This document shows positions 49,861 through 62,696 of a stretch of 64,000 nucleotides of DNA, piece by piece. Source of the stretch: an uncultured Chthonomonadaceae bacterium. GTDB taxonomy: Bacteria > Armatimonadota > Chthonomonadetes > Chthonomonadales > Chthonomonadaceae. Within the stretch, counting starts at the first letter, position 1, and every line of letters starts with the position of its first letter. A model generated the notes under the pieces. The model was given only the letters and a program-made list of their open reading frames with translations, made no database searches and had not been told where the DNA came from. The stretch is taken from NCBI GenBank assembly GCA_963817895.1, contig CAWFQB010000004.1:352001-416000 (forward strand). Direction: 5' to 3'. A program made the translations under genes and the position numbers.

Positions 49861-50151
49861 ATGTCTACCATCCGTAAACGCTATTCTGCCGAGTTCAAAG
49901 CAAAACTGGCTTTGGAAGTGGTCAAAGGCAACCACACTCTTGCCGAGATTGCCAGTGACGCGCAAGTGCATCCCAATCTGCTGATGCAGTGGAAAAAGCA
50001 ACTGCTCGACAGTTTGCCTACGGTCTTTGCCGATAAGCGCGTCAAAGACACCAAAGACCAGGAAGAGAAAGAAGCCCAACTTTACCAGCAGATCGGCCAA
50101 CTCAAGGTTGAACTGGACTGGCTCAAAAAAAAATCAGGTCGCCTCGGTTGA
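49861..50151 (+). CDS. IS3 OrfA (HTH)
   Basis: RKRYSAEFKAKLALE..HPN..WKKQ..LYQQIGQLKVELDWLKKK. Confidence 0.92.
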   Translation: MSTIRKRYSAEFKAKLALEVVKGNHTLAEIASDAQVHPNLLMQWKKQLLDSLPTVFADKRVKDTKDQEEKEAQLYQQIGQLKVELDWLKKKSGRLG

Positions 50152-50980
50152 GACGCTGCGGCAGCGCGTGGAAGTCGGGCATCCGCATCTGAGCATTGGG
50201 CGTCAATGTGAACTGCTCGGTCTGTCGCGTTCCGGCTACTACTACCAGCCAACAGGTGAAAACGCGTTCAATCTGCTTCTCATGCAGCTCATAGATAAGG
50301 AGTATACCAAGCATCCATTCTTCGGCTACCGGAAGATGGTTCATGTCTTGCGCGAAGACGGGCATCTTGTCAACAAGAAGCGGATTGCCCGCTTGATGCA
50401 GGTTATGGGATTGCAGGCCATGGTTCCCGGCCCGAATACGAGCCGCCCGCATCCTGAAAATCCCATCTACCCGTACCTTTTGCGCGGCGTCAAGATAAAC
50501 GCAGTCAATCAGGTGTGGAGTTGCGACATCACCTATATTCCCTTAGAGAAAGGATTTGTCTACCTGTTTGCCATTATCGATTGGTACAGTCGCTTCGTTC
50601 TGACGTGGCAATTGTCCAACACGCTCGACACGGCTTTTTGCTGCGAAGGACTGGATCAGGCTCTGGGAAGCGGTAAGCCCATGATCTTCAATTCGGATCA
50701 GGGCGTCCAATTTACCAGCAAGGAGTTCACGGGTCGCTTGCTATCCGCCGACATTACCATCAGCATGGATGGACGAGGCCGGGCGCTGGACAACATCTTC
50801 GTGGAACGCTTGTGGCGAACGGTCAAATACGAAGACGTGTATCTCAAAGGCTACGAAACGCCAAAAGCCGTGTACAACGGATTGCACAGCTACTTCCAGT
50901 TCTATAATGAAGCGCGTCCGCACCAAGCGCTGGCCTACAAAACACCAGCCCAAGTGTATCAACAAGCGCTCGGTTGCTAG
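50123..50980 (+). CDS. IS3 OrfB integrase-like DDE transposase (via -1 programmed frameshift)
   Basis: NQVWSCDITYI, IIDWYSR, NSDQGVQF, DNIFVERLWRTVKYE and RPHQAL. Confidence 0.92.
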   Translation, partial: SKKNQVASVETLRQRVEVGHPHLSIGRQCELLGLSRSGYYYQPTGENAFNLLLMQLIDKEYTKHPFFGYRKMVHVLREDGHLVNKKRIARLMQVMGLQAMVPGPNTSRPHPENPIYPYLLRGVKINAVNQVWSCDITYIPLEKGFVYLFAIIDWYSRFVLTWQLSNTLDTAFCCEGLDQALGSGKPMIFNSDQGVQFTSKEFTGRLLSADITISMDGRGRALDNIFVERLWRTVKYEDVYLKGYETPKAVYNGLHSYFQFYNEARPHQALAYKTPAQVYQQALGC

Positions 50981-52709: not shown

Positions 52710-54497
52710 CTACCGGGTCGCTCCGGCTTTGACCAGCGCATCCACCATCGCCGGGAAATGCTGCTGTTTTGCAATTGTCAGCGGGGTGACGCCACTGGAA
52801 TCGGCGGCGTTGGCATTTGCGCCATGCGCGGCCAGCAGGCTGATACGCTCCGGGGCCATGCGCGTGACGGCGTGATGCAGGGGCGTCTGTCCGTGATAGT
52901 CTCGCGCGTTGGCGTCCGCGCCATGTTCCAGCAGCGCGGCAACCACGTTGTTATAGGAGGTCCGCATCAGGGCGGTCTGGCCCTGCGAGTCGCGCTCGTC
53001 CACCTTTGCGCCCCGCGCGATCAGCAGGGCAACCATTTCGGGCGTGGAAGCGCGGGCAATCAGCATCGTATCCTGCGTTCCGCCGCCGGCATTTGCCCCC
53101 GCTTTCAGCAAGAGCCGCATCACTTCGCTGCTCTGAGTGTGCATTAAGGCGGTATTGCCCTGATGATCGCGGGCATTAACTTCAACTCCATGCGCCAGCA
53201 GCACCTGCGTTGCGGCGGGAGAATCGCAGGCAAGCATCAGGGGCGTTTCCCCCCGCGTGTTCTGCGCGTGGACATCGGCTCCATGCTCTATCAGGAATTG
53301 GACAATGTCGCCATTGGTCGCGTTCGCCGCCGCCATCAGGGGCGTTGTTCCCCCGGTTGCGGGGTCCAGAACCGGATTCACTTTCGCGCCGCGTTCTACA
53401 AGTAGGCGGCAGATGGGAAGGTCGTGCATGGCCGCAGCGGTTATCAGCGGCGTAGAGTAGACAGACAGAGCGGATTGGCGCGGGCCGGCTGCAATGGGCG
53501 ACGGCTCGACGGAAACGTCCCTGTCCAGCAACGCTTTGACAGCCTCCGGTTTGCCGGAATGAATGGCGCTGGTCAGCGCGGCAGTCCCCATCATCTGGCG
53601 CGTCTCGGCATCCAGTTTCTTGTCCCAGATCGCGACAATCAGCGCGGCGGAACCCTGCTGCGCGGCCCATAGCAGCGGCGTCCGCTGTTGCTGCATAACG
53701 GGCCGATTGTAGGGCATATTGAATTGCGAACCATTGCCCTCAGGCATGATTGGCGGAGTTTCCAGCGCGTCCAGATTGGCTCCCCGCGCCAGCAGCAGTT
53801 TTATCGCGTCCTCATGGCGGTTGCCGCAGGCGAGGCAAAGGGCGGTCTGTCCCTGCGCGTCTTTCTCCTCGATGTCGGCCCCGGCGTTCAGCAGCAGGGC
53901 GGCAACGTCCGTGTTGCCGGATAGGGCGGCCAGATGCAACGGGGAGTGGCCCTCGCTGTTATGGACGCGGATATCGGCTCCCTTCGCCAGCAGCAGCCTG
54001 ATTGTGTTCGCGTCGGGAGTGGTGGCGGCGGCCAGCAGCGCGGTCAGGCCATTGGCGAGTTTGACGTTGACGTTCGCGCCATGCGCCAGCAATTCATTGA
54101 CGATCCCCTCGCTGTCCGAACTTGCCGCCATCATCAGCAGCGTTCGGCTTTTGCCGGTACCCGGATTGGCAGGCCAGCCCGGAAGGTAGCGCAGCAATCC
54201 CGGCGTTTCATCCGGCGTGTGAACGAATCGCTGATTCGGGTCGGCCCCGCCACGCAGCAAATCGCGGACTTCCGCCACATCATGCTCCATCACCGCTGCC
54301 CGCAGCGCGTCATTGGCGCGAATATGCCGGACGTGAAGGAATTCGCCCCCGGCCACAAGCAGCGCGAGGGCAAGCAGCAGATGCCGGTTGCGCCGTTTGG
54401 AAGCCAGTGGCGTGGTGACAAGTTTTTCGTAATAGTCGGCGGACGACGGCGCGACTGCGGGCGCATCGTTCGGCTGCGAGGAGAGTGGAGTGGTCAT
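52710..54497 (-). CDS. Ankyrin repeat protein with N-terminal TM
   Basis: Many G.TPL..AA..LL..GADVN repeats. Confidence 0.92.
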   Translation of the reverse strand: MTTPLSSQPNDAPAVAPSSADYYEKLVTTPLASKRRNRHLLLALALLVAGGEFLHVRHIRANDALRAAVMEHDVAEVRDLLRGGADPNQRFVHTPDETPGLLRYLPGWPANPGTGKSRTLLMMAASSDSEGIVNELLAHGANVNVKLANGLTALLAAATTPDANTIRLLLAKGADIRVHNSEGHSPLHLAALSGNTDVAALLLNAGADIEEKDAQGQTALCLACGNRHEDAIKLLLARGANLDALETPPIMPEGNGSQFNMPYNRPVMQQQRTPLLWAAQQGSAALIVAIWDKKLDAETRQMMGTAALTSAIHSGKPEAVKALLDRDVSVEPSPIAAGPRQSALSVYSTPLITAAAMHDLPICRLLVERGAKVNPVLDPATGGTTPLMAAANATNGDIVQFLIEHGADVHAQNTRGETPLMLACDSPAATQVLLAHGVEVNARDHQGNTALMHTQSSEVMRLLLKAGANAGGGTQDTMLIARASTPEMVALLIARGAKVDERDSQGQTALMRTSYNNVVAALLEHGADANARDYHGQTPLHHAVTRMAPERISLLAAHGANANAADSSGVTPLTIAKQQHFPAMVDALVKAGATR

Positions 54498-56211: not shown

Positions 56212-56404
56212 ACACACGACATGTGCTGTTAGCTATAACTGAAGCGTAATGTAGTTCGTAAAGTTCAGTGTCCCGGTTGATGTATTTCTGATGTCGTCAG
56301 GAGATGCCAATGGGACACTGAATTTTTTAGAAGGATATGCGGTAAAGCGCCACGAATAAAGTTACCATGACAATGGTTGCTGAGTCTTTGGCAGGAACAG
56401 ACAA

Positions 56405-58663
56405 ATGGCAGATTTAGATGACAGAATACCTGCTTTGCTGGCAGAGGAACAAAACGAGAAGTCACCCAAGCATTTTACGGTAGATGCCCGAACGATACTC
56501 CAATTGGGGCGACAGAGCATCAAAGATAATGTTACGGCTGTACTTGAATTGGTTAAGAACAGTTATGATGCCGACGCTGATATTGTGGAAGTAGAAATTG
56601 CCACACAGCAGGAAAATGGATACATTCGTATTGCTGACAATGGCTGTGGCATGACCGAAGATGTGATTGATGACAGTTGGCTACGTATCGGATTTTCCGA
56701 CAAAAGAGTTGAGCGATTCAGCAAACGAGGCCGCAGAAAAACCGGTGAAAAAGGGGTGGGAAGAATATCAGCGGATCGGCTAGGCTCTACGCTGGAGTTG
56801 CGAACACGAGCGGAAAACAAAGGCGATTTCGGACTGGTTATTGACTGGAATTTGTTCGATGTTGAGGGTGTGACGTTATCAGACATTCCTATCGAAACGT
56901 TGACTAACGTTAGAGCAGAGTTGCCGAGACATGGCACAAAATTATCTTCCGGCACGGAATTGATCGTTCGTGATCTGCGTGAACCGTGGACCGCCAATGA
57001 AATTCGTAACTTATATGATGAATTGTCTGTTCTCACGCCTCCATTTCAGCAGGTTCAGGATTTCAAAATCTATCTGAAAACAGATGTTGCACCAGATTAC
57101 AACGGCCTTATCACATCTTCTTTTGAAGAAGCTGCTCTTATTGAGTTAGAGGCAAGTTTTGACGGAGAATTGTTGCGTTACTGCCTGCTTGACCGTACCA
57201 ACAATGCTGCGCCTGTCAAGCAGGATGTTGAAGTGAAATGGAAGCAAATTGTTCAGAGCGTGACGCCAGGCACAGAGGTTCGCGCCCATGCGCTTGTCGG
57301 ACCTGTTCGCCTCAAATTAATGTTTTATCTGCGTAGCCAGACGGATTTATTATCGAAGGCCGACTTTAAATTGTCAGATTTGCGTGAGTTTCTCGACAGA
57401 AATGCTGGCGTGAAGATATACCGTGATAATATTCGCGTTCGACCTTACGGCGACCCCGCAACTACCGAGGGGGATTGGCTGGGCTTGAATGAACGTAAAG
57501 CGCGTGACCCTGCCGGGTTAAGTCGTGGAACTTACCATTTCACTGCAAATCAGGTTGTTGGAGCGGTATTTCTGAGCCGAGATGATAATTCTGCGCTGAT
57601 AGATAGCGCTAGTCGGGAAGGCCTAATTCATAGCGAAGCATTCGCAGATATGAGGGCTTTAACGCTGGCCTGTTTGTCATTGATGGAAATGCACCGGCAT
57701 GACACTTATCAATCGAAACGTCACGAAAAGGAACAGTTATCCCCGGATGAAGTACTGACCAATTTCACAAAGGAACTTTCAACCCTCACAGAAGGGCTGG
57801 AGCAAGTTCAAAATGAGCTAGCGGGCAATATATTCGGTACATCCCCTGAAGTTACGCAGGCACTTGCGCAAGTGGCTCGTATCGCCAATAGTGCGCAATT
57901 TGCAACAGAGTCCTTGAACGAGATCATGTCTCAGGCAGGGGTGCTAAGAGGTTTGGCTACGCTTGGCATTGCAACCTCTGTTTTTGGGCACGAGACACAA
58001 AGCGCGTTGACGCAGTTTGTTGGCTCTACAGCATTTGCGCGAGATCTGTTGCAAGTGGAAGAGCCAGATATAGCTGCCACGCGAAAGCAAGTAGAAACTG
58101 CGCTTCATTCTGCGCTTCAAGTCAGAGCATGGGGAGCCTTTTCCCTTGAGCGCGTAAAGCGCAACAAACGCGAAAAGCGATTAATCAATGTCAGAGAAAC
58201 CGTTCTCCGTGTAGCGAAAGAATTGCAGCCTGCGTTTCAAGCGGCGAGCATTGATCTGAATTGGACGCGAATGGAAGATGTTTGTGCCAGTCTCTTCGAG
58301 ATGGATGTTGAGTCTATCATTCTCAATCTGCTGACAAATGCTTATACTGCCTGTCAGCAAATTCAGAAAATAAGGCGTCCGCGCAAAGTGCAAATTGAGC
58401 TAAGCAAAGTTGCTTACAACAATAGAGATGGCTTTGAACTTGTTGTCTCCGATACCGGCCCCGGGGTTTCCGATGATCTTGCGGGCAAAATTTGGAAACC
58501 ATTAGTGTCTTTCAAGAAAAACGCTAAGGGGAATGAAGAAGGAACAGGATTGGGTTTAACTATCGTGAATTCGATTGTTACAGAGGCCAAAGGACACAAG
58601 GCTGTTTCTCTGAGTTCGGAATTAGGCGGTGCGCTTTTTTCAATATGGCTCCCAGTTGAGTAA
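56405..58663 (+). CDS. MORC-like GHKL ATPase fused to a C-terminal histidine kinase
   Basis: N-terminal ELVKNSYDA, DNGCGM and GEKGVGR. Middle domain GVKIYRD..RVRPYG..DWLGL..SREG. C-terminal FGHE, NLLTNA, DTGPG and GTGLGL. Confidence 0.85.
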   Translation: MADLDDRIPALLAEEQNEKSPKHFTVDARTILQLGRQSIKDNVTAVLELVKNSYDADADIVEVEIATQQENGYIRIADNGCGMTEDVIDDSWLRIGFSDKRVERFSKRGRRKTGEKGVGRISADRLGSTLELRTRAENKGDFGLVIDWNLFDVEGVTLSDIPIETLTNVRAELPRHGTKLSSGTELIVRDLREPWTANEIRNLYDELSVLTPPFQQVQDFKIYLKTDVAPDYNGLITSSFEEAALIELEASFDGELLRYCLLDRTNNAAPVKQDVEVKWKQIVQSVTPGTEVRAHALVGPVRLKLMFYLRSQTDLLSKADFKLSDLREFLDRNAGVKIYRDNIRVRPYGDPATTEGDWLGLNERKARDPAGLSRGTYHFTANQVVGAVFLSRDDNSALIDSASREGLIHSEAFADMRALTLACLSLMEMHRHDTYQSKRHEKEQLSPDEVLTNFTKELSTLTEGLEQVQNELAGNIFGTSPEVTQALAQVARIANSAQFATESLNEIMSQAGVLRGLATLGIATSVFGHETQSALTQFVGSTAFARDLLQVEEPDIAATRKQVETALHSALQVRAWGAFSLERVKRNKREKRLINVRETVLRVAKELQPAFQAASIDLNWTRMEDVCASLFEMDVESIILNLLTNAYTACQQIQKIRRPRKVQIELSKVAYNNRDGFELVVSDTGPGVSDDLAGKIWKPLVSFKKNAKGNEEGTGLGLTIVNSIVTEAKGHKAVSLSSELGGALFSIWLPVE

Positions 58664-58674
58664 AGGAGTTTTGT

Positions 58675-59349
58675 ATGCCTACAATCGGCGTTGTTGATGA
58701 TAGAAAAGATCAGCGGGAACTTCTTGTAGGTCAGATTAGACACCATCTGCGCAATTATTCAGAATGGGAAGCACTCGAAACTCCCCCATTCGAGGATATT
58801 AATGATTATCCGAGTTGGATATCAGAGAATAATATCTCTGTTTTGATACTTGACGAGCGGCTACATGAAGGCATTGATGAACAGGAAGGAACTGAAAATA
58901 CTGTATTGCCTGTTGAATATGAGGGCCATAATGTAGTTGATTTGCTACGTGATCGGTATCATTCACTGCCCATCTGGATTGTGACAGCATATGCTGACGC
59001 CCCGGAATTACTGAGTAGACAATCAAAGATAAAGAATGTACTTCCGCGAGATGATTTCTCGTTGAATGCAGGTAATTACGTTTCACGATTTGTGAGACTT
59101 GGGACCGATTTTTATCAAGAGAATAGGGAGGAACTTGAAAGACTTGCAGAGTTGTCTCGAAAGATAGCCAGAGATGAAGCTACGGAGGAAGAAATCCGCG
59201 AAGCGGGTGGTTTACAACTGAGCCAGTCTCTACCGTTTCAGCCACTTCAATTGCGCAGTGAGTGGATTACCAAAATGGAACAGGCTGTAGACGAGTTAGC
59301 CGATCTTGAAAAGCGCATACGTCAGCATCTTGAGGGCAAAGAAGGATGA
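58675..59349 (+). CDS. Divergent response-regulator receiver domain protein with helical tail
   Basis: IGVVDD, LILDERL (putative phospho-Asp) and IVTAY. AAGGAG RBS, and no HTH seen. Confidence 0.72.
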   Translation: MPTIGVVDDRKDQRELLVGQIRHHLRNYSEWEALETPPFEDINDYPSWISENNISVLILDERLHEGIDEQEGTENTVLPVEYEGHNVVDLLRDRYHSLPIWIVTAYADAPELLSRQSKIKNVLPRDDFSLNAGNYVSRFVRLGTDFYQENREELERLAELSRKIARDEATEEEIREAGGLQLSQSLPFQPLQLRSEWITKMEQAVDELADLEKRIRQHLEGKEG

Positions 59350-59981
59350 GTTGGTTTAGAATTGAGAAGGAAAACACGAAACAACCCGCAAAAGGCTCCT
59401 ACAAGGATTGGAAAGAAATACTGGCTGTAGAGGGCGGGCATCAGTGTGTTTATTGCGCTGTTTCCGAACGCTCGTTTGGCGGTATACGCAATTTTCATGT
59501 TGAGCATTACAGGCCGAAGAGTTTCAAGCGCTTTGAGACGCTGACGAATGACATACGCAATTTATACTATGCTTGTCCAATCTGCAACACGTTCAAGGGA
59601 GATGATTGGCCGAACGATCCTTCCGATGATTTAGCAGAGGAGTGTTACGCGGAGCCGTCTGCAATAGATTATACTTACCTGTTTATGCTTACAACCACAT
59701 CGGAAATCACCGGCAAGAATGTTGCCGCAAGGTACATGGTTGAAAAACTCTACCTGAACCGACCTCAACTGATAATGGAGCGAAGAGAAGAACAGATTTT
59801 CGTTCGCTTGAATAATATTAACCAACATTTGAGGCAGGATATCGAGATGCTATTAAGGCGCACAGATACAGAAAGCCATAACTTGGTAGTTGAGTACATA
59901 CAAAATAGAGACAAAATGAATGCAATACTGATTGAAGCAAGGAAGTTGCCTCCATATCACAGCGAAGATGTGAGCCGCTGA
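59346..59981 (+). CDS. HNH endonuclease
   Basis: CVYC, HVEHYRPK and NLYYACPICN..K. ATGA overlap with the receiver gene. Confidence 0.88.
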   Translation: MSWFRIEKENTKQPAKGSYKDWKEILAVEGGHQCVYCAVSERSFGGIRNFHVEHYRPKSFKRFETLTNDIRNLYYACPICNTFKGDDWPNDPSDDLAEECYAEPSAIDYTYLFMLTTTSEITGKNVAARYMVEKLYLNRPQLIMERREEQIFVRLNNINQHLRQDIEMLLRRTDTESHNLVVEYIQNRDKMNAILIEARKLPPYHSEDVSR

Positions 59982-59986
59982 AATTC

Positions 59987-61663
59987 TCAACCTGCCTCAT
60001 TATTCATCAAGGTTTTTCCCTTTTTCAATAGATGCTTGTCAAACCTGTAATTACCAGCACCCTGGAAACGCCTCTGACGCAGACGATTTCTGGCACGTTC
60101 AAGACAGGGCTGCAATTCCGCGTATTCCGGTAGCATACAGCCAAGCAGTTGATCCGTTGCCGTAACCAGCAAATTCGAAGCGTCGCGCTGACCGCCTGCC
60201 TGTCGGCTGATCGTATCTAATCTTTCCAGATAGGGGCGCGTGTTTAGTACGGGAACGACGAGGCGGGCAAGTTCGGAAGGAACCAGTTCGAGGACGCCGC
60301 CTCCGTAGGTACGGCCTTCCAATTCGGCGGAAAGCAGGGTCAGGGAGTTGTGAAAGCCGGATACCAGATCGGTTTCCCGGTCGGCAAAGGCAGGCGTCAT
60401 TTCGCCCCGGTAAATGGTGTCCGTCGTGAATACGCGCGGCTGGTTGAGCAGCAGGCGGTGATGCTGGTGGGACCGCTTGGGCAGCATCAGGTTTCCCGCT
60501 TTGATGTGCGGAACCCGATACCACGGCGTTCGGATACGGCATTTGTAGCGTCCGGGCAGGTTGCGCTCCACGCCCGTTTGCAGATATTGCGCGGCAAGCG
60601 GATGCAGCATGGGATCGGGCCGGGGCGCGCTGAAATCCAGCAGCCAGCATTTGCGCCCCTGCTGCCGCGCCTGTTCCTGATCTGCCGCGTTGTAAACAAT
60701 CCCCAAACTGTCCGCCGTTCGCGCCAGAAGGGGACGCGCCCACTCCCATAATTCAAACTTCTCTACTACGCTTTCATCTACGGTGAAAAAGTCGTTGGCT
60801 CCCGTCACAATGGCAACCCCGATTGTGGCGACGCTTTTAAGAGGGTGAAAACCGGCAAGCCTTCGCGCCCTGCCGAACGCTTCCCATTCCGGCGCGGTCA
60901 GCAGATAGCGCATCCACGACTCGCCCGAAGCCGAAACAACATGCTGCCACGTTTGTATGCCCCCTGACGCATGTTCGCAAAACGTCGCCGTCCGTTCAGT
61001 CTGCGCATGGGGCGCGTAAGTGCCGCTGACAATTACCACGTCCTGCAAAATGTCGGGGAAAGCGTCACGAGGATACAGGTCTATTTGCAAATCGGCGCAA
61101 TGGCGACTCAGTTCCAACCGTATCTGCCCCGCCGAAATGGTTGTCAGCAGTTCGCTCGGCAATACAAGCGCGAACGCCCCGCCGGGTTTCAATAGCCGCA
61201 GACTCAACAGCGCGAAAGGTATCCAGAGGTTGGAAACGCCTTGCAATACCAGCCCCTCCGCGCGCAGCAATTGTTCGGCAAGGGTTCGGTCCTGTGCTGT
61301 GACAAACTGGTAGCGGACAAACGGGGGATTGCCCACAACGGCATCGAAGCGTTCCGCGTTGCCGTCCGCCCACGCGAAGAAACTGCCCGCGATTGTCTGG
61401 CCCGCAATGCCGTAACAGGTCATCGCGTCCCGGCATTTGGCGGCTTCTTCCTCATCAAGTTCAATACAGGTAAGGGTAGGCAACCGCAACTGCCCGCGTA
61501 TTACGAAATCACGAAAGCCGCGCGCAAACGCGCCATCCCCCGCAGAGGGTTCCAGTACGCGCAAAGAGCGGTTGGCGTCCGTCAATGTGGCGATACGTTC
61601 CAAACAGGCGGCCACAAGTAATGGCGACGTGTAGTACGCTCCACGCAGTTTGACCGCTCCCAT
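59987..61663 (-). CDS. N6-adenine DNA methyltransferase (gamma class, TaqI/Eco57I-like)
   Basis: GAYYT, VLEPSAGDGAF and VGNPPF in gamma order, C-terminal GRTYGGGVLEL. The 5' extension in the track runs through REPs. Confidence 0.88.
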   Translation of the reverse strand: MGAVKLRGAYYTSPLLVAACLERIATLTDANRSLRVLEPSAGDGAFARGFRDFVIRGQLRLPTLTCIELDEEEAAKCRDAMTCYGIAGQTIAGSFFAWADGNAERFDAVVGNPPFVRYQFVTAQDRTLAEQLLRAEGLVLQGVSNLWIPFALLSLRLLKPGGAFALVLPSELLTTISAGQIRLELSRHCADLQIDLYPRDAFPDILQDVVIVSGTYAPHAQTERTATFCEHASGGIQTWQHVVSASGESWMRYLLTAPEWEAFGRARRLAGFHPLKSVATIGVAIVTGANDFFTVDESVVEKFELWEWARPLLARTADSLGIVYNAADQEQARQQGRKCWLLDFSAPRPDPMLHPLAAQYLQTGVERNLPGRYKCRIRTPWYRVPHIKAGNLMLPKRSHQHHRLLLNQPRVFTTDTIYRGEMTPAFADRETDLVSGFHNSLTLLSAELEGRTYGGGVLELVPSELARLVVPVLNTRPYLERLDTISRQAGGQRDASNLLVTATDQLLGCMLPEYAELQPCLERARNRLRQRRFQGAGNYRFDKHLLKKGKTLMNNEAG

Positions 61664-61736
61664 GTCTTCCACCAACTTCAATCCGTCCACTCCCTGCCGC
61701 AAACAAAGCGCATAGGGTACACTCATCAAATAAAAT

Positions 61737-61848
61737 CCCGTAGGGACACAACATGTTGTGTCCTCCCCTGCGCCGTGTCTTCCTCTAATGATGCGGGCGA
61801 GAACATAACATACGCCAATGCGGACACAACATGTTGTGTCCCTACGGG
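61737..61848. repeat. Inverted pair of 27-bp GTAG REPs (REPIN-like)
   Basis: CCCGTAGGGACACAACATGTTGTGTCC at 61737-61763 and its exact complement at 61822-61848. Confidence 0.9.
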
Positions 61849-62696
61849 GTTGTTCTTTTGTAAACAAGTGGGTTCAGTTCGCTGGCGGCGGGTTCGCCCG
61901 GTTTTATGCCGGGAAGCCACGAGTCCAGATCGTTCTGGCGGTTTGGGTTGTCGGGGTTCAGGGCGAGTGTGCCGTCCGCGAAGTAGATGATGGTCATCAC
62001 TTCGCGGGTAGACGTTCCCGCGTTTCCCGGCGCGGAGTGCAGCGTCCAGCCCGCGTGGAAAGTGGCGTCGCCCGCCTGCATCACCGTATTCGTGACGTTG
62101 TAGCCTTTGTCTTTGACGATCTGCGCATACATGGCTTCGGATTCATCGGAAATAGCGACGTTTCCCAAAAAACCCTCCTGATGGGAACCGGTCGCGAACG
62201 TCAACGCGCCCATGTCAATCGGCACATCCACGAGCGGCATCCATAATGTAACCGTGTTCGCGGTATTGAGCGGCCAGTAGTATTGATCCTGATGCCAAGG
62301 CGTATGCCCGCCGCCCGCTTCCTTGTACAGCGATTGGTCATGGTACAAACGGACGCCCTCCACGCCCATCAAATCGGCAGCTATTTTGGCGAACCGGCGG
62401 GCAAGGGTGAATTTGCGGGCGGCGGGGTCATCGCGCCACAGGTTCATCGTCTGCAAAAACGCGCGTCCGTACGTGTCGCGCTCTGACATGGGGCGCGTTT
62501 CGTTATTAAGCGCATACGTGGCGTTGTTGAGAACGGGGCGGTACACGGCGATCTCATCCGGCGCGCAAACATGGCGCAGCAGCACATGGCCGTCGCGCCG
62601 ATACGCGGCAATCTGTTCCGCGCGCAGCGCGTACTCGCCGGAAAGGTCGGGCAGGTTTTCCAGAGCAGGCGCGGCTTCAAACGTCGTTGTTGTCAT
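61842..62696 (-). CDS. Phytanoyl-CoA dioxygenase family (Fe/2OG) protein
   Basis: TPWHQD, TLWMPL and AGDATFH...LHSAP.N. Confidence 0.9.
   Translation of the reverse strand: MTTTTFEAAPALENLPDLSGEYALRAEQIAAYRRDGHVLLRHVCAPDEIAVYRPVLNNATYALNNETRPMSERDTYGRAFLQTMNLWRDDPAARKFTLARRFAKIAADLMGVEGVRLYHDQSLYKEAGGGHTPWHQDQYYWPLNTANTVTLWMPLVDVPIDMGALTFATGSHQEGFLGNVAISDESEAMYAQIVKDKGYNVTNTVMQAGDATFHAGWTLHSAPGNAGTSTREVMTIIYFADGTLALNPDNPNRQNDLDSWLPGIKPGEPAASELNPLVYKRTTP

Follow-up and report, generated by a model that had tools for sequence, protein, structure and literature searches.

A likely variant of the Ambrosia defense system, with a predicted receiver-nuclease complex and a methylase of probable restriction-modification ancestry, in an uncultured Chthonomonadaceae bacterium

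Ambrosia, a defense system of Pseudomonas aeruginosa, consists of AbrR, AbrA, AbrB, AbrC and AbrD, which are an XRE protein, an N6 methylase, a HATPase/kinase, a receiver and an HNH protein, respectively (10.1101/2025.09.30.679545). The system blocks Pbunavirus and Mesyanzhinovviridae phages, every gene is needed and the D60A substitution in AbrC abolished defense. Growth on the methylase left phages sensitive, mutation of the methylase abolished defense, reporters were induced on infection, there was no host toxicity during defense, and the authors proposed transcriptional control via a winged helix in AbrC (10.1101/2025.09.30.679545). The 64,000-nucleotide window analyzed here (positions 352,001-416,000 of contig CAWFQB010000004.1, GCA_963817895.1; all coordinates are positions within the window) carries genes for a kinase, a receiver and an HNH nuclease, collectively the core, facing a convergent N6-adenine methylase. 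This four-gene cassette is likely a variant of Ambrosia, to which it was likened by composition and description rather than by sequence.

The cassette is real and conserved, and it is very likely defensive. The linkage of kinase, receiver, HNH nuclease and methylase in relatives is far beyond chance, and the helical tail of the receiver is predicted to bind the nuclease, so that direct switching is favored over the transcriptional model published for Ambrosia. We hold with moderate confidence that the locus encodes an Ambrosia-type system in which the kinase-receiver relay directly switches a receiver-bound HNH nuclease and in which the methylase, derived from a restriction-modification (RM) system, is a required fourth part. 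The system type is already named, and what is added here is the predicted direct receiver-nuclease complex and the traceable capture of an RM methylase; neither was found in print, in a search whose coverage left out most subscription journals. The original prediction, made from the DNA letters, had regarded the set as novel and had itself named a match to a described system as the end of that claim. Such matches were found: Ambrosia has the same four components and Detocs is a named phosphorelay defense family, so the claim of novelty fails. Ambrosia poses two puzzles, a methylase that is required yet does not protect and the route from the relay to the nuclease. The window locus offers 1) a minimal four-gene version without the XRE gene and with a concrete predicted receiver-nuclease interface, 2) a natural swap, in which the core is served by a methylase whose RM ancestry can be traced and relatives have alleles with and without the core, and 3) a way to study biochemically how bacterial MORC-like ATPases act as sensors.

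The locus resembles Ambrosia in having a HATPase/histidine kinase, a receiver (with the predicted phosphorylation site at D60 in both), an HNH nuclease and an N6 methylase in one cluster, and the kinase has the matching architecture of two GHKL domains with intact motifs and H529. It differs in that the methylase is downstream, convergent and from a clade of RM systems with PLD-type nucleases, and also in its spread, with relatives in many phyla against a reported range of Gammaproteobacteria for Ambrosia. The hidden Markov model cut-offs given for Ambrosia are 100 bits for AbrA, 500 for AbrB, 150 for AbrC and 200 for AbrD (10.1101/2025.09.30.679545).

Four other groups of systems bear comparison, in addition to the Septu and retron I-A systems. 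The elements defined by HEF_HK (PF19191) and Response_reg_2 (PF19192) are paraMORC two-component-like elements near RM genes, whose N-terminal ATPase was proposed to be the sensor (PMC8011034). They share with the window locus a soluble HATPase_c_3, DHp and HATPase_c kinase beside a receiver; however, the window receiver has 224 residues rather than about 600, the HNH protein is a fixed partner, and the methylase is an N6 enzyme where theirs are mostly C5. At E<=0.1, there was no match to HEF_HK or HisKA in the window kinase or to PF19192 in the window receiver, and PF19191 matched the relative L098 at 90.8 bits. Detocs (DtcA-DtcB-DtcC) is a validated His-to-Asp phosphorelay that switches a defense effector post-translationally, nuclease effectors occur, and the system aborts infection (10.1101/2023.01.24.525353), so that phosphorelay-to-effector defense is real. 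The Detocs kinase has tetratricopeptide repeats, whereas the window kinase begins with a GHKL-S5 module; the Detocs effector is fused to the receiver and accompanied by an extra buffer receiver, whereas the window effector is encoded by a separate gene, and the methylase beside the window core has no counterpart in the available Detocs passages. A single REC-family match was found in the window genome. The paraMORC ATPases of RM systems, which are predicted to loop DNA (PMC2292703), have the same GHKL and S5 module with intact ATPase motifs and likewise stand beside methylases and HNH nucleases; the window locus adds a fused histidine kinase and a receiver, neither of which appears in the available passages. 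In Type 1F Shedu, a nuclease was proposed, as a prediction only, to be switched by a receiver that neighbors a histidine kinase (10.1101/2023.08.10.552793), but there a PD-(D/E)xK nuclease is fused to the receiver and here the HNH protein is separate. PtuB of the Septu and retron I-A systems was the best PADLOC and PDB match of the window nuclease, but no PtuA ABC ATPase or retron lies beside it.

The cassette and its relatives

The features of the locus are the following.

56405..58663, + strand: paraMORC-type GHKL ATPase with S5 domain and soluble histidine kinase (AbrB-like), 752 amino acids (aa)
56468..57721, + strand: N-terminal GHKL-S5 module, about aa 22-439, predicted sensor/ATP clamp; limits from the secondary structure of the model
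57743..58660, + strand: helical linker, DHp domain with H529 (FGHE) and ATP-binding domain; from Pfam, conservation and model
58675..59349, + strand: receiver protein (AbrC-like), 224 aa; from an AlphaFold2 (AF2) model, fold searches and the complex model
59346..59981, + strand: PtuB-like zinc-binding HNH nuclease (AbrD-like), 211 aa; from Pfam, PADLOC and PDB profiles
59987..61681, - strand: convergent N6-adenine DNA methyltransferase, 564 aa from TTG 61681; from Pfam, PADLOC, trees and ortholog neighbors
59987..60061, - strand: AT-rich tail of the methylase, its last ~25 codons, the right core junction; from GC content and tail alignment
56212..56404, + strand: 193-bp leader from pepV to the kinase, the left core junction; core-less joints in run X1 start from 56211

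The close packing described in the original prediction proved exact, with a kinase-receiver gap of 11 bp, a receiver/HNH overlap of ATGA and 5 bp between the stops of the HNH and methylase genes. The core is indeed richer in AT than its flanks (GC 0.44-0.47 for the core genes, 0.58 for the methylase, 0.63 for pepV and 0.57 for the genome). GC at third codon positions (GC3) was 0.36-0.49 in the core, within the lowest 2% of the long open reading frames (ORFs) of the genome, 0.64 in the methylase and 0.75 in pepV. GC fell to 0.405 across 59987-60070, and DNA similarity to the sister genome G002 stopped near 60058. The convergent placement of the methylase stood, and its start did not: it is probably TTG 61681 rather than ATG 61663, because the ortholog in G002 begins at that codon too and carries Ile at the position of the window Met. 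No XRE gene was found in the leader, where the longest ATG ORF has 22 aa, and a home-made XRE profile gave nothing upstream; neither gap flanking the core has an ATG ORF longer than 26 aa. No consensus promoter was found in the leader, and promoter and terminator scans were at chance (9 vs 5.6 +/- 2.4 and 9 vs 6.5 +/- 2.8, respectively). PADLOC had no system name for the four-gene set, its best matches being PtuB for the HNH protein and a type II methyltransferase.

The kinase had been predicted to have two GHKL modules, a full set of kinase boxes and no transmembrane helix, which agreed with Pfam (HATPase_c_3 at aa 44-152, HATPase_c at aa 634-751), with conservation in 120 relatives and with hydropathy, the absence of a transmembrane helix being concluded from a 19-residue peak of 1.33. 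The AF2 model, with a predicted local distance difference test (pLDDT) score of 83, consisted of a GHKL domain, an S5-type domain, long helices, a DHp domain with H529 and a catalytic domain. In Foldseek, its front resembled MORC2, MORC3 and Hsp90 over about 470 columns and its back resembled HK853 and CpxA over about 250. The invariant residues of the GHKL-S5 module were E48, N52, D78, G114/G117/G119, R120 and T184, and the ATP-binding residues of the kinase were N641/N645, D683-G685-G687 and G713-G715-G717. The catalytic residues (H529/E530, the N, G1 and G2 boxes and the N-terminal site) were invariant in 120/120 relatives (96 for D683 and 96 for G687). The exact MORC S5 motif, GhXhhpXXRhl, was not matched in the kinase, which has a variant one residue longer at aa 335-345, and the label paraMORC-type was chosen for that reason.

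The family survey comprised 563 receiver representatives at E<=0.001 and 1,092 kinase relatives at E<=1e-30 among the scored candidates; receiver alignments varied too much to serve as seeds for locus searches. The loci read were the best 80 of 296 in genomes and the best 80 of 94 in metagenomes, and they are not independent because they are rich in Bacteroidota and include near-duplicates. The receiver followed the kinase in 133 of the 134 loci with room for it (75/76 in genomes, 58/58 in metagenomes), and the HNH gene came next in 126/128 (71/73 and 55/55). An N6 methylase was adjacent in 93/93 loci (61/61 and 32/32), the count being taken over loci that had a receiver or HNH gene plus 2 kb on both sides. 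The methylase profile used was built from the surveyed loci, and 10/10 scanned representatives matched Pfam N6_Mtase or Eco57I. Left out of the count were 15 genome and 32 metagenome loci with short flanks, of which 10 and 18 still showed a methylase, and 4 and 16 loci without a receiver or HNH gene in view, mostly at contig ends. Thus the co-occurrence of homologues with HNH and methylase genes, on which the original prediction had staked itself, held almost without exception. The adjacent methylase was upstream in 10 genome and 5 metagenome loci, downstream and co-oriented in 48 and 25, and convergent in 3 and 2. An XRE gene lay just upstream in 11/71 genome and 5/38 metagenome relatives, a lower bound given the narrow home-made profile.

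A few loci depart from the common arrangement: L078 (6682-10793) has methylase, kinase and receiver without HNH, and in L075 (5195-7118) the kinase is cut at 238 aa and runs straight into the methylase. In Flavobacterium procerum (L077, 2354-11460), a single methylase lies between two divergent kinase-receiver-HNH cores arranged in tandem. In a sister architecture, found at L218 (3610-8779) and L220 (4998-9774) on Burkholderia and Pseudanabaena plasmids, a paraMORC kinase, in some cases with a methylase, is followed by a receiver with a different tail and a protein of metallo-beta-lactamase fold in place of HNH. In L217 (4998-8220) and L134 (1-2550), paraMORC kinases are followed by 357-aa receivers fused to unannotated and apparently mutually unlike domains, and a dual-GHKL kinase of 25% identity occurs in 41 Campylobacter plasmid records (H66-H108), most of them 50-60 kb long.

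The set is also kept on plasmids of Klebsiella, Salipiger, Deinococcus, Bacillus, Ensifer and Bacteroides, in relatives that are 26-33% identical. On the Deinococcus plasmid (L011), the order XRE-methylase-kinase-receiver-HNH is that in which the Ambrosia genes are listed, and on the Klebsiella variicola plasmid (L009, 5688-10557) the kinase is in three pieces, with a short receiver, in a defense island near Ppl. A search of plasmids with tblastn for a Pseudomonas copy gave no Pseudomonas record among the matches listed, and two relatives used as blastn queries had no match in E. coli genomes. Phage records gave none either. Viral contigs gave nothing with a single kinase as query and four loci with the kinase alignment; among these, L095 (7986-10163) has a 41%-identical kinase lying at the end of its contig, and L096 (2455-7226) has a full methylase-kinase-receiver-HNH set. 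The cassette is rare in the lineage of the window, being present in 1 of 41 relatives (the window genome itself) and in 2 of 401 genomes of the phylum. A survey of 400 genomes from the class to which G407 belongs found G407 itself and, beyond it, two weak matches only (G658 was unscored).

Receiver, nuclease and methylase

The receiver gave a sub-threshold match to Pfam Response_reg, and its identity comes from the AlphaFold model and fold searches. In the AF2 model (pLDDT 92.6), three long helices at residues 132-165, 171-183 and 191-223 come after the REC fold, in agreement with the claim that the protein has no DNA-binding output. Neither a winged helix nor another helix-turn-helix (HTH) was found in the receiver, as the model has no strands past residue 124 and there was no HTH match in Pfam, in searches made with the whole protein and not with the tail alone; the scanned receivers of six relatives also lacked a match to HTH families. 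D60 was invariant in 147/147 rows and D8, D9 and T104 nearly so. The beta-5 residue was Arg125 in 127/147 relatives and the canonical Lys in 15/147.

The HNH protein matched Pfam above the cut-off, and C34/C37/C77/C80, H54, N72 and N81 were kept in 81/81 rows. Its best PADLOC match was PtuB at 67 bits and its PDB profile matches were PtuB proteins; against the NCBIfam PtuB model NF041761 it scored 21 bits, the cut-off being 150. ESM Atlas searches returned only unnamed receiver clusters and generic HNH clusters. A second HNH relative (115 bits) occurs in the window genome at G000 C1:450018-452779, where it closely follows a methylase-like ORF (70 bits); neither a kinase nor a receiver of the cassette's family lies nearby.

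When the receiver and HNH protein were folded as a pair, with paired 120-row alignments and zinc, the complex score was 0.78, compared with 0.00 for the best control. A score of 0.78 was attained by 116/157 solved complexes and by 2/215 mismatched pairs. The runs shared at least 55% of contacts and the partner pLDDT was at least 84. In the predicted interface, receiver residues 154-219 and 41-51 lie against HNH residues 126-202, 44-51 and 78-89, the last segment carrying the active-site residues N81 and K84, and the C-terminal helices of the HNH protein form the predicted receiver-binding face. Interface residues were better conserved than the rest of the same segments (0.51 vs 0.38 and 0.44 vs 0.36), and the 25 best predicted contacts covaried, with a mean z of 0.94 vs 0.00 +/- 0.20 for random pairs, a test of covariation and conservation that is not independent of the complex prediction because the alignments are identical. 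The direct licensing of the nuclease that had been proposed thus gains a candidate structural basis in this predicted complex.

The methylase matched Eco57I, N6_Mtase and M_Eco57I_C in Pfam and a type II methyltransferase in PADLOC (354 bits). In gamma-class enzymes motif I precedes the catalytic motif; here motif I is at aa 43 and NPPF at aa 118, which fits the class assigned from the sequence. In a FastTree of 89 rows, the window methylase clustered with those of G002, G317, G006 and G015 at 100% support, outside every core-associated clade, and the core-associated methylases fell into at least four clades. The G317, G006 and G015 methylases (57-61% identical) face a PLD/NgoFVII-type nuclease gene convergently, the position held by the core in the window. 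This cognate PLD restriction enzyme adjoins the orthologs in G317, G006, G015 and G003 and is absent beside the window methylase; tblastn with four PLD enzymes gave one unlinked partial match in the 81%-complete genome. In the kinase tree, the lineage is nested among Gemmatimonadota systems with an upstream 430-450-aa methylase, and a swap of the methylase is therefore probable. GC3 of the methylase was 0.21 above that of the core, compared with a gap of 0.004 +/- 0.031 (maximum 0.079) in 116 other loci. Together with the methylase tree, this shows that the methylase joined separately, as had been suggested, and its relatives indicate that it was likely taken over from an ordinary type II restriction system.

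In the sister genome G002, 117 bp separate pepV from a methylase of 81% identity and the core is missing, and G001 has neither core nor methylase at this place. In G002 (L004, 10385-10530) the last 24 bases of pepV are tandemly duplicated, and the orphan methylase shifts frame near its 3' end, which is real or an assembly error. Methylase orthologs 82, 79 and 69% identical were found on contigs of 94,600, 13,388 and 48,535 bp, and the closest kinases (at least 90, 69 and 64% identical) and receivers (90, 63 and 60%) on contigs of equal size in bp, from which methylase, kinase and receiver appear to be co-located in three relatives, orientation not being covered by this comparison. In run X1, one 4,635-bp contig was collinear over the end of pepV, the kinase, the HNH gene and the convergent methylase at about 80% identity, and two contigs had pepV joined straight to the methylase, with 3,968 and 4,067 bases skipped. 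The short sides of these core-less joints are 37 and 49 bases, with a likeness of 80, and X1 is possibly not independent of the co-location records. The methylase tails read G-[AS]-G-[NP] in four core-linked alleles and G-S-[ED]-G in five others, two of which are on short contigs where absence of the core was not shown. The core-linked alleles are not one clade (three changes are forced). Because G002 and two X1 contigs lack the core that other alleles carry, and the core-linked alleles are not a single clade, the locus is a presence/absence polymorphism, in which the core has repeatedly been acquired or lost next to a methylase that was already resident. We also considered a recent insertion next to an orphan methylase unrelated to the core and dropped it, as the pairing is stable in this lineage, being seen in diverged relatives and in X1.

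Mechanism and alternatives

In the mechanism that we favor, the MORC-like GHKL-S5 module would sense infection by a signal that we infer. Phosphate would then pass from H529 to D60, as suggested by the conservation of both residues and by the D60A result in Ambrosia. The role in defense that the original prediction proposed is supported, and the phosphorelay residues are intact. The receiver tail may re-seat on the HNH protein that is already bound, turning the nuclease on, and the phosphorylated receiver would be the ON state, by analogy with Ambrosia. Anti-phage activity and the need for every gene are likewise carried over from that system. The methylase would be needed, as its adjacency in 93/93 loci and its requirement in Ambrosia suggest, and is probably not a simple shield. 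The core is served by at least four unrelated methylase clades and therefore probably reads the methylation state or the methylase generally and not one recognition sequence. A bolder version, possible though somewhat doubtful, is that the core is indifferent to the identity of the methylase: a MORC-like DNA clamp and kinase would switch a pre-bound HNH nuclease via a split receiver-nuclease complex, the module being able to replace the restriction enzyme of an ordinary type II system and keep its methylase as input. If true, this would upset the transcriptional model proposed for Ambrosia and reveal how signal-gated immunity is built from RM parts.

Several points weigh against direct switching within an Ambrosia-type system. 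The window has no XRE gene, whereas the HipB-like AbrR is needed in Ambrosia, and the window receiver tail is helical, whereas AbrC is said to have a winged helix and expression is induced. Arg125 replaces the usual Lys of receivers. The beta-5 Lys couples phosphorylation to the change of shape. The interface holds only 4 of the 30 strongest covarying pairs (expected share 0.058). The complex score is a measure of model confidence, obtained with custom alignments and a zinc ligand that lie outside the calibration, so that the calibration counts are approximate, and it is silent on whether binding inhibits or activates. Finally, the methylase persists without the core in G002 and at the two X1 joints, and thus has a life of its own.

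An alternative that we consider unlikely is an RM system gated by the kinase, in which the methylase marks self, the ATPase finds unmethylated sites and the relay triggers local cutting. It would account for a methylase from a type II RM clade with the core in the position of the convergent restriction enzyme, for the adjacency of the methylase in every evaluable locus, for orphan methylases that resemble RM decay after loss of the core and for paraMORCs predicted to loop DNA in RM systems (PMC2292703). However, the Ambrosia results that phages grown on the methylase stayed sensitive and that methylase mutants lost defense are at odds with it; self-marking, which the original prediction had also assumed, is doubtful because methylation gave those phages no protection, and pairing with at least four methylase clades is hard to fit to one fixed recognition site. 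The apparent sufficiency of any N6 methylase would suit a guard or addiction system. There the kinase would monitor the methylase or methylation, the nuclease would fire on inhibition or loss, and the cell would die or stall. PtuB-like nucleases are effectors in guard-type retron systems, the predicted nuclease-receiver complex resembles a held toxin, and Detocs aborts infection. We nevertheless judge a guard quite unlikely, as Ambrosia acts without host toxicity and a mutated methylase abolished its defense instead of firing it.

Transcriptional two-component control, in which the phosphorylated receiver binds DNA and induces the nuclease and the methylase, draws on the reporters induced on infection and the annotated winged helix of AbrC in Ambrosia. 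It appears very unlikely for the window locus, where only long helices follow the REC fold, with no HTH match here or in the receivers of six relatives, the predicted contact with the HNH protein already occupies the tail, and kinase, receiver and HNH protein are translationally coupled with the methylase on the opposite strand. The methylase might instead be a bystander, the three-gene core having landed in the gap between pepV and the methylase and working alone, using another methylase or being inactive. The elevated GC3 of the methylase, above the core by 0.21, the scatter of core-bearing alleles over more than one clade and the 14 other ORFs in the genome that match the methylase profile would fit such an origin. 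It is nonetheless highly improbable, given that 0/93 evaluable relatives lack an adjacent methylase, that the pairing holds in relatives down to 64% kinase identity and that the catalytic residues are all intact.

Surroundings of the cassette

Upstream of the methylase, a near-palindromic repeat resembling repetitive extragenic palindromic (REP) elements has copies at 61745 and 61823 (61740-61850). Its 15-base core had 66 matches in the genome with both strands counted, so that one site may count twice, and 61724-61859, spanning the repeats, is missing from one X1 contig. Upstream of pepV, 52710-54497 encodes what we take to be an ankyrin-repeat protein, syntenic with G002, and two overlapping ORFs at 49861-50980 presumably belong to an IS3-family transposase. 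Beyond the methylase, a PhyH-family dioxygenase gene at 61842-62696 is likewise syntenic with G002.

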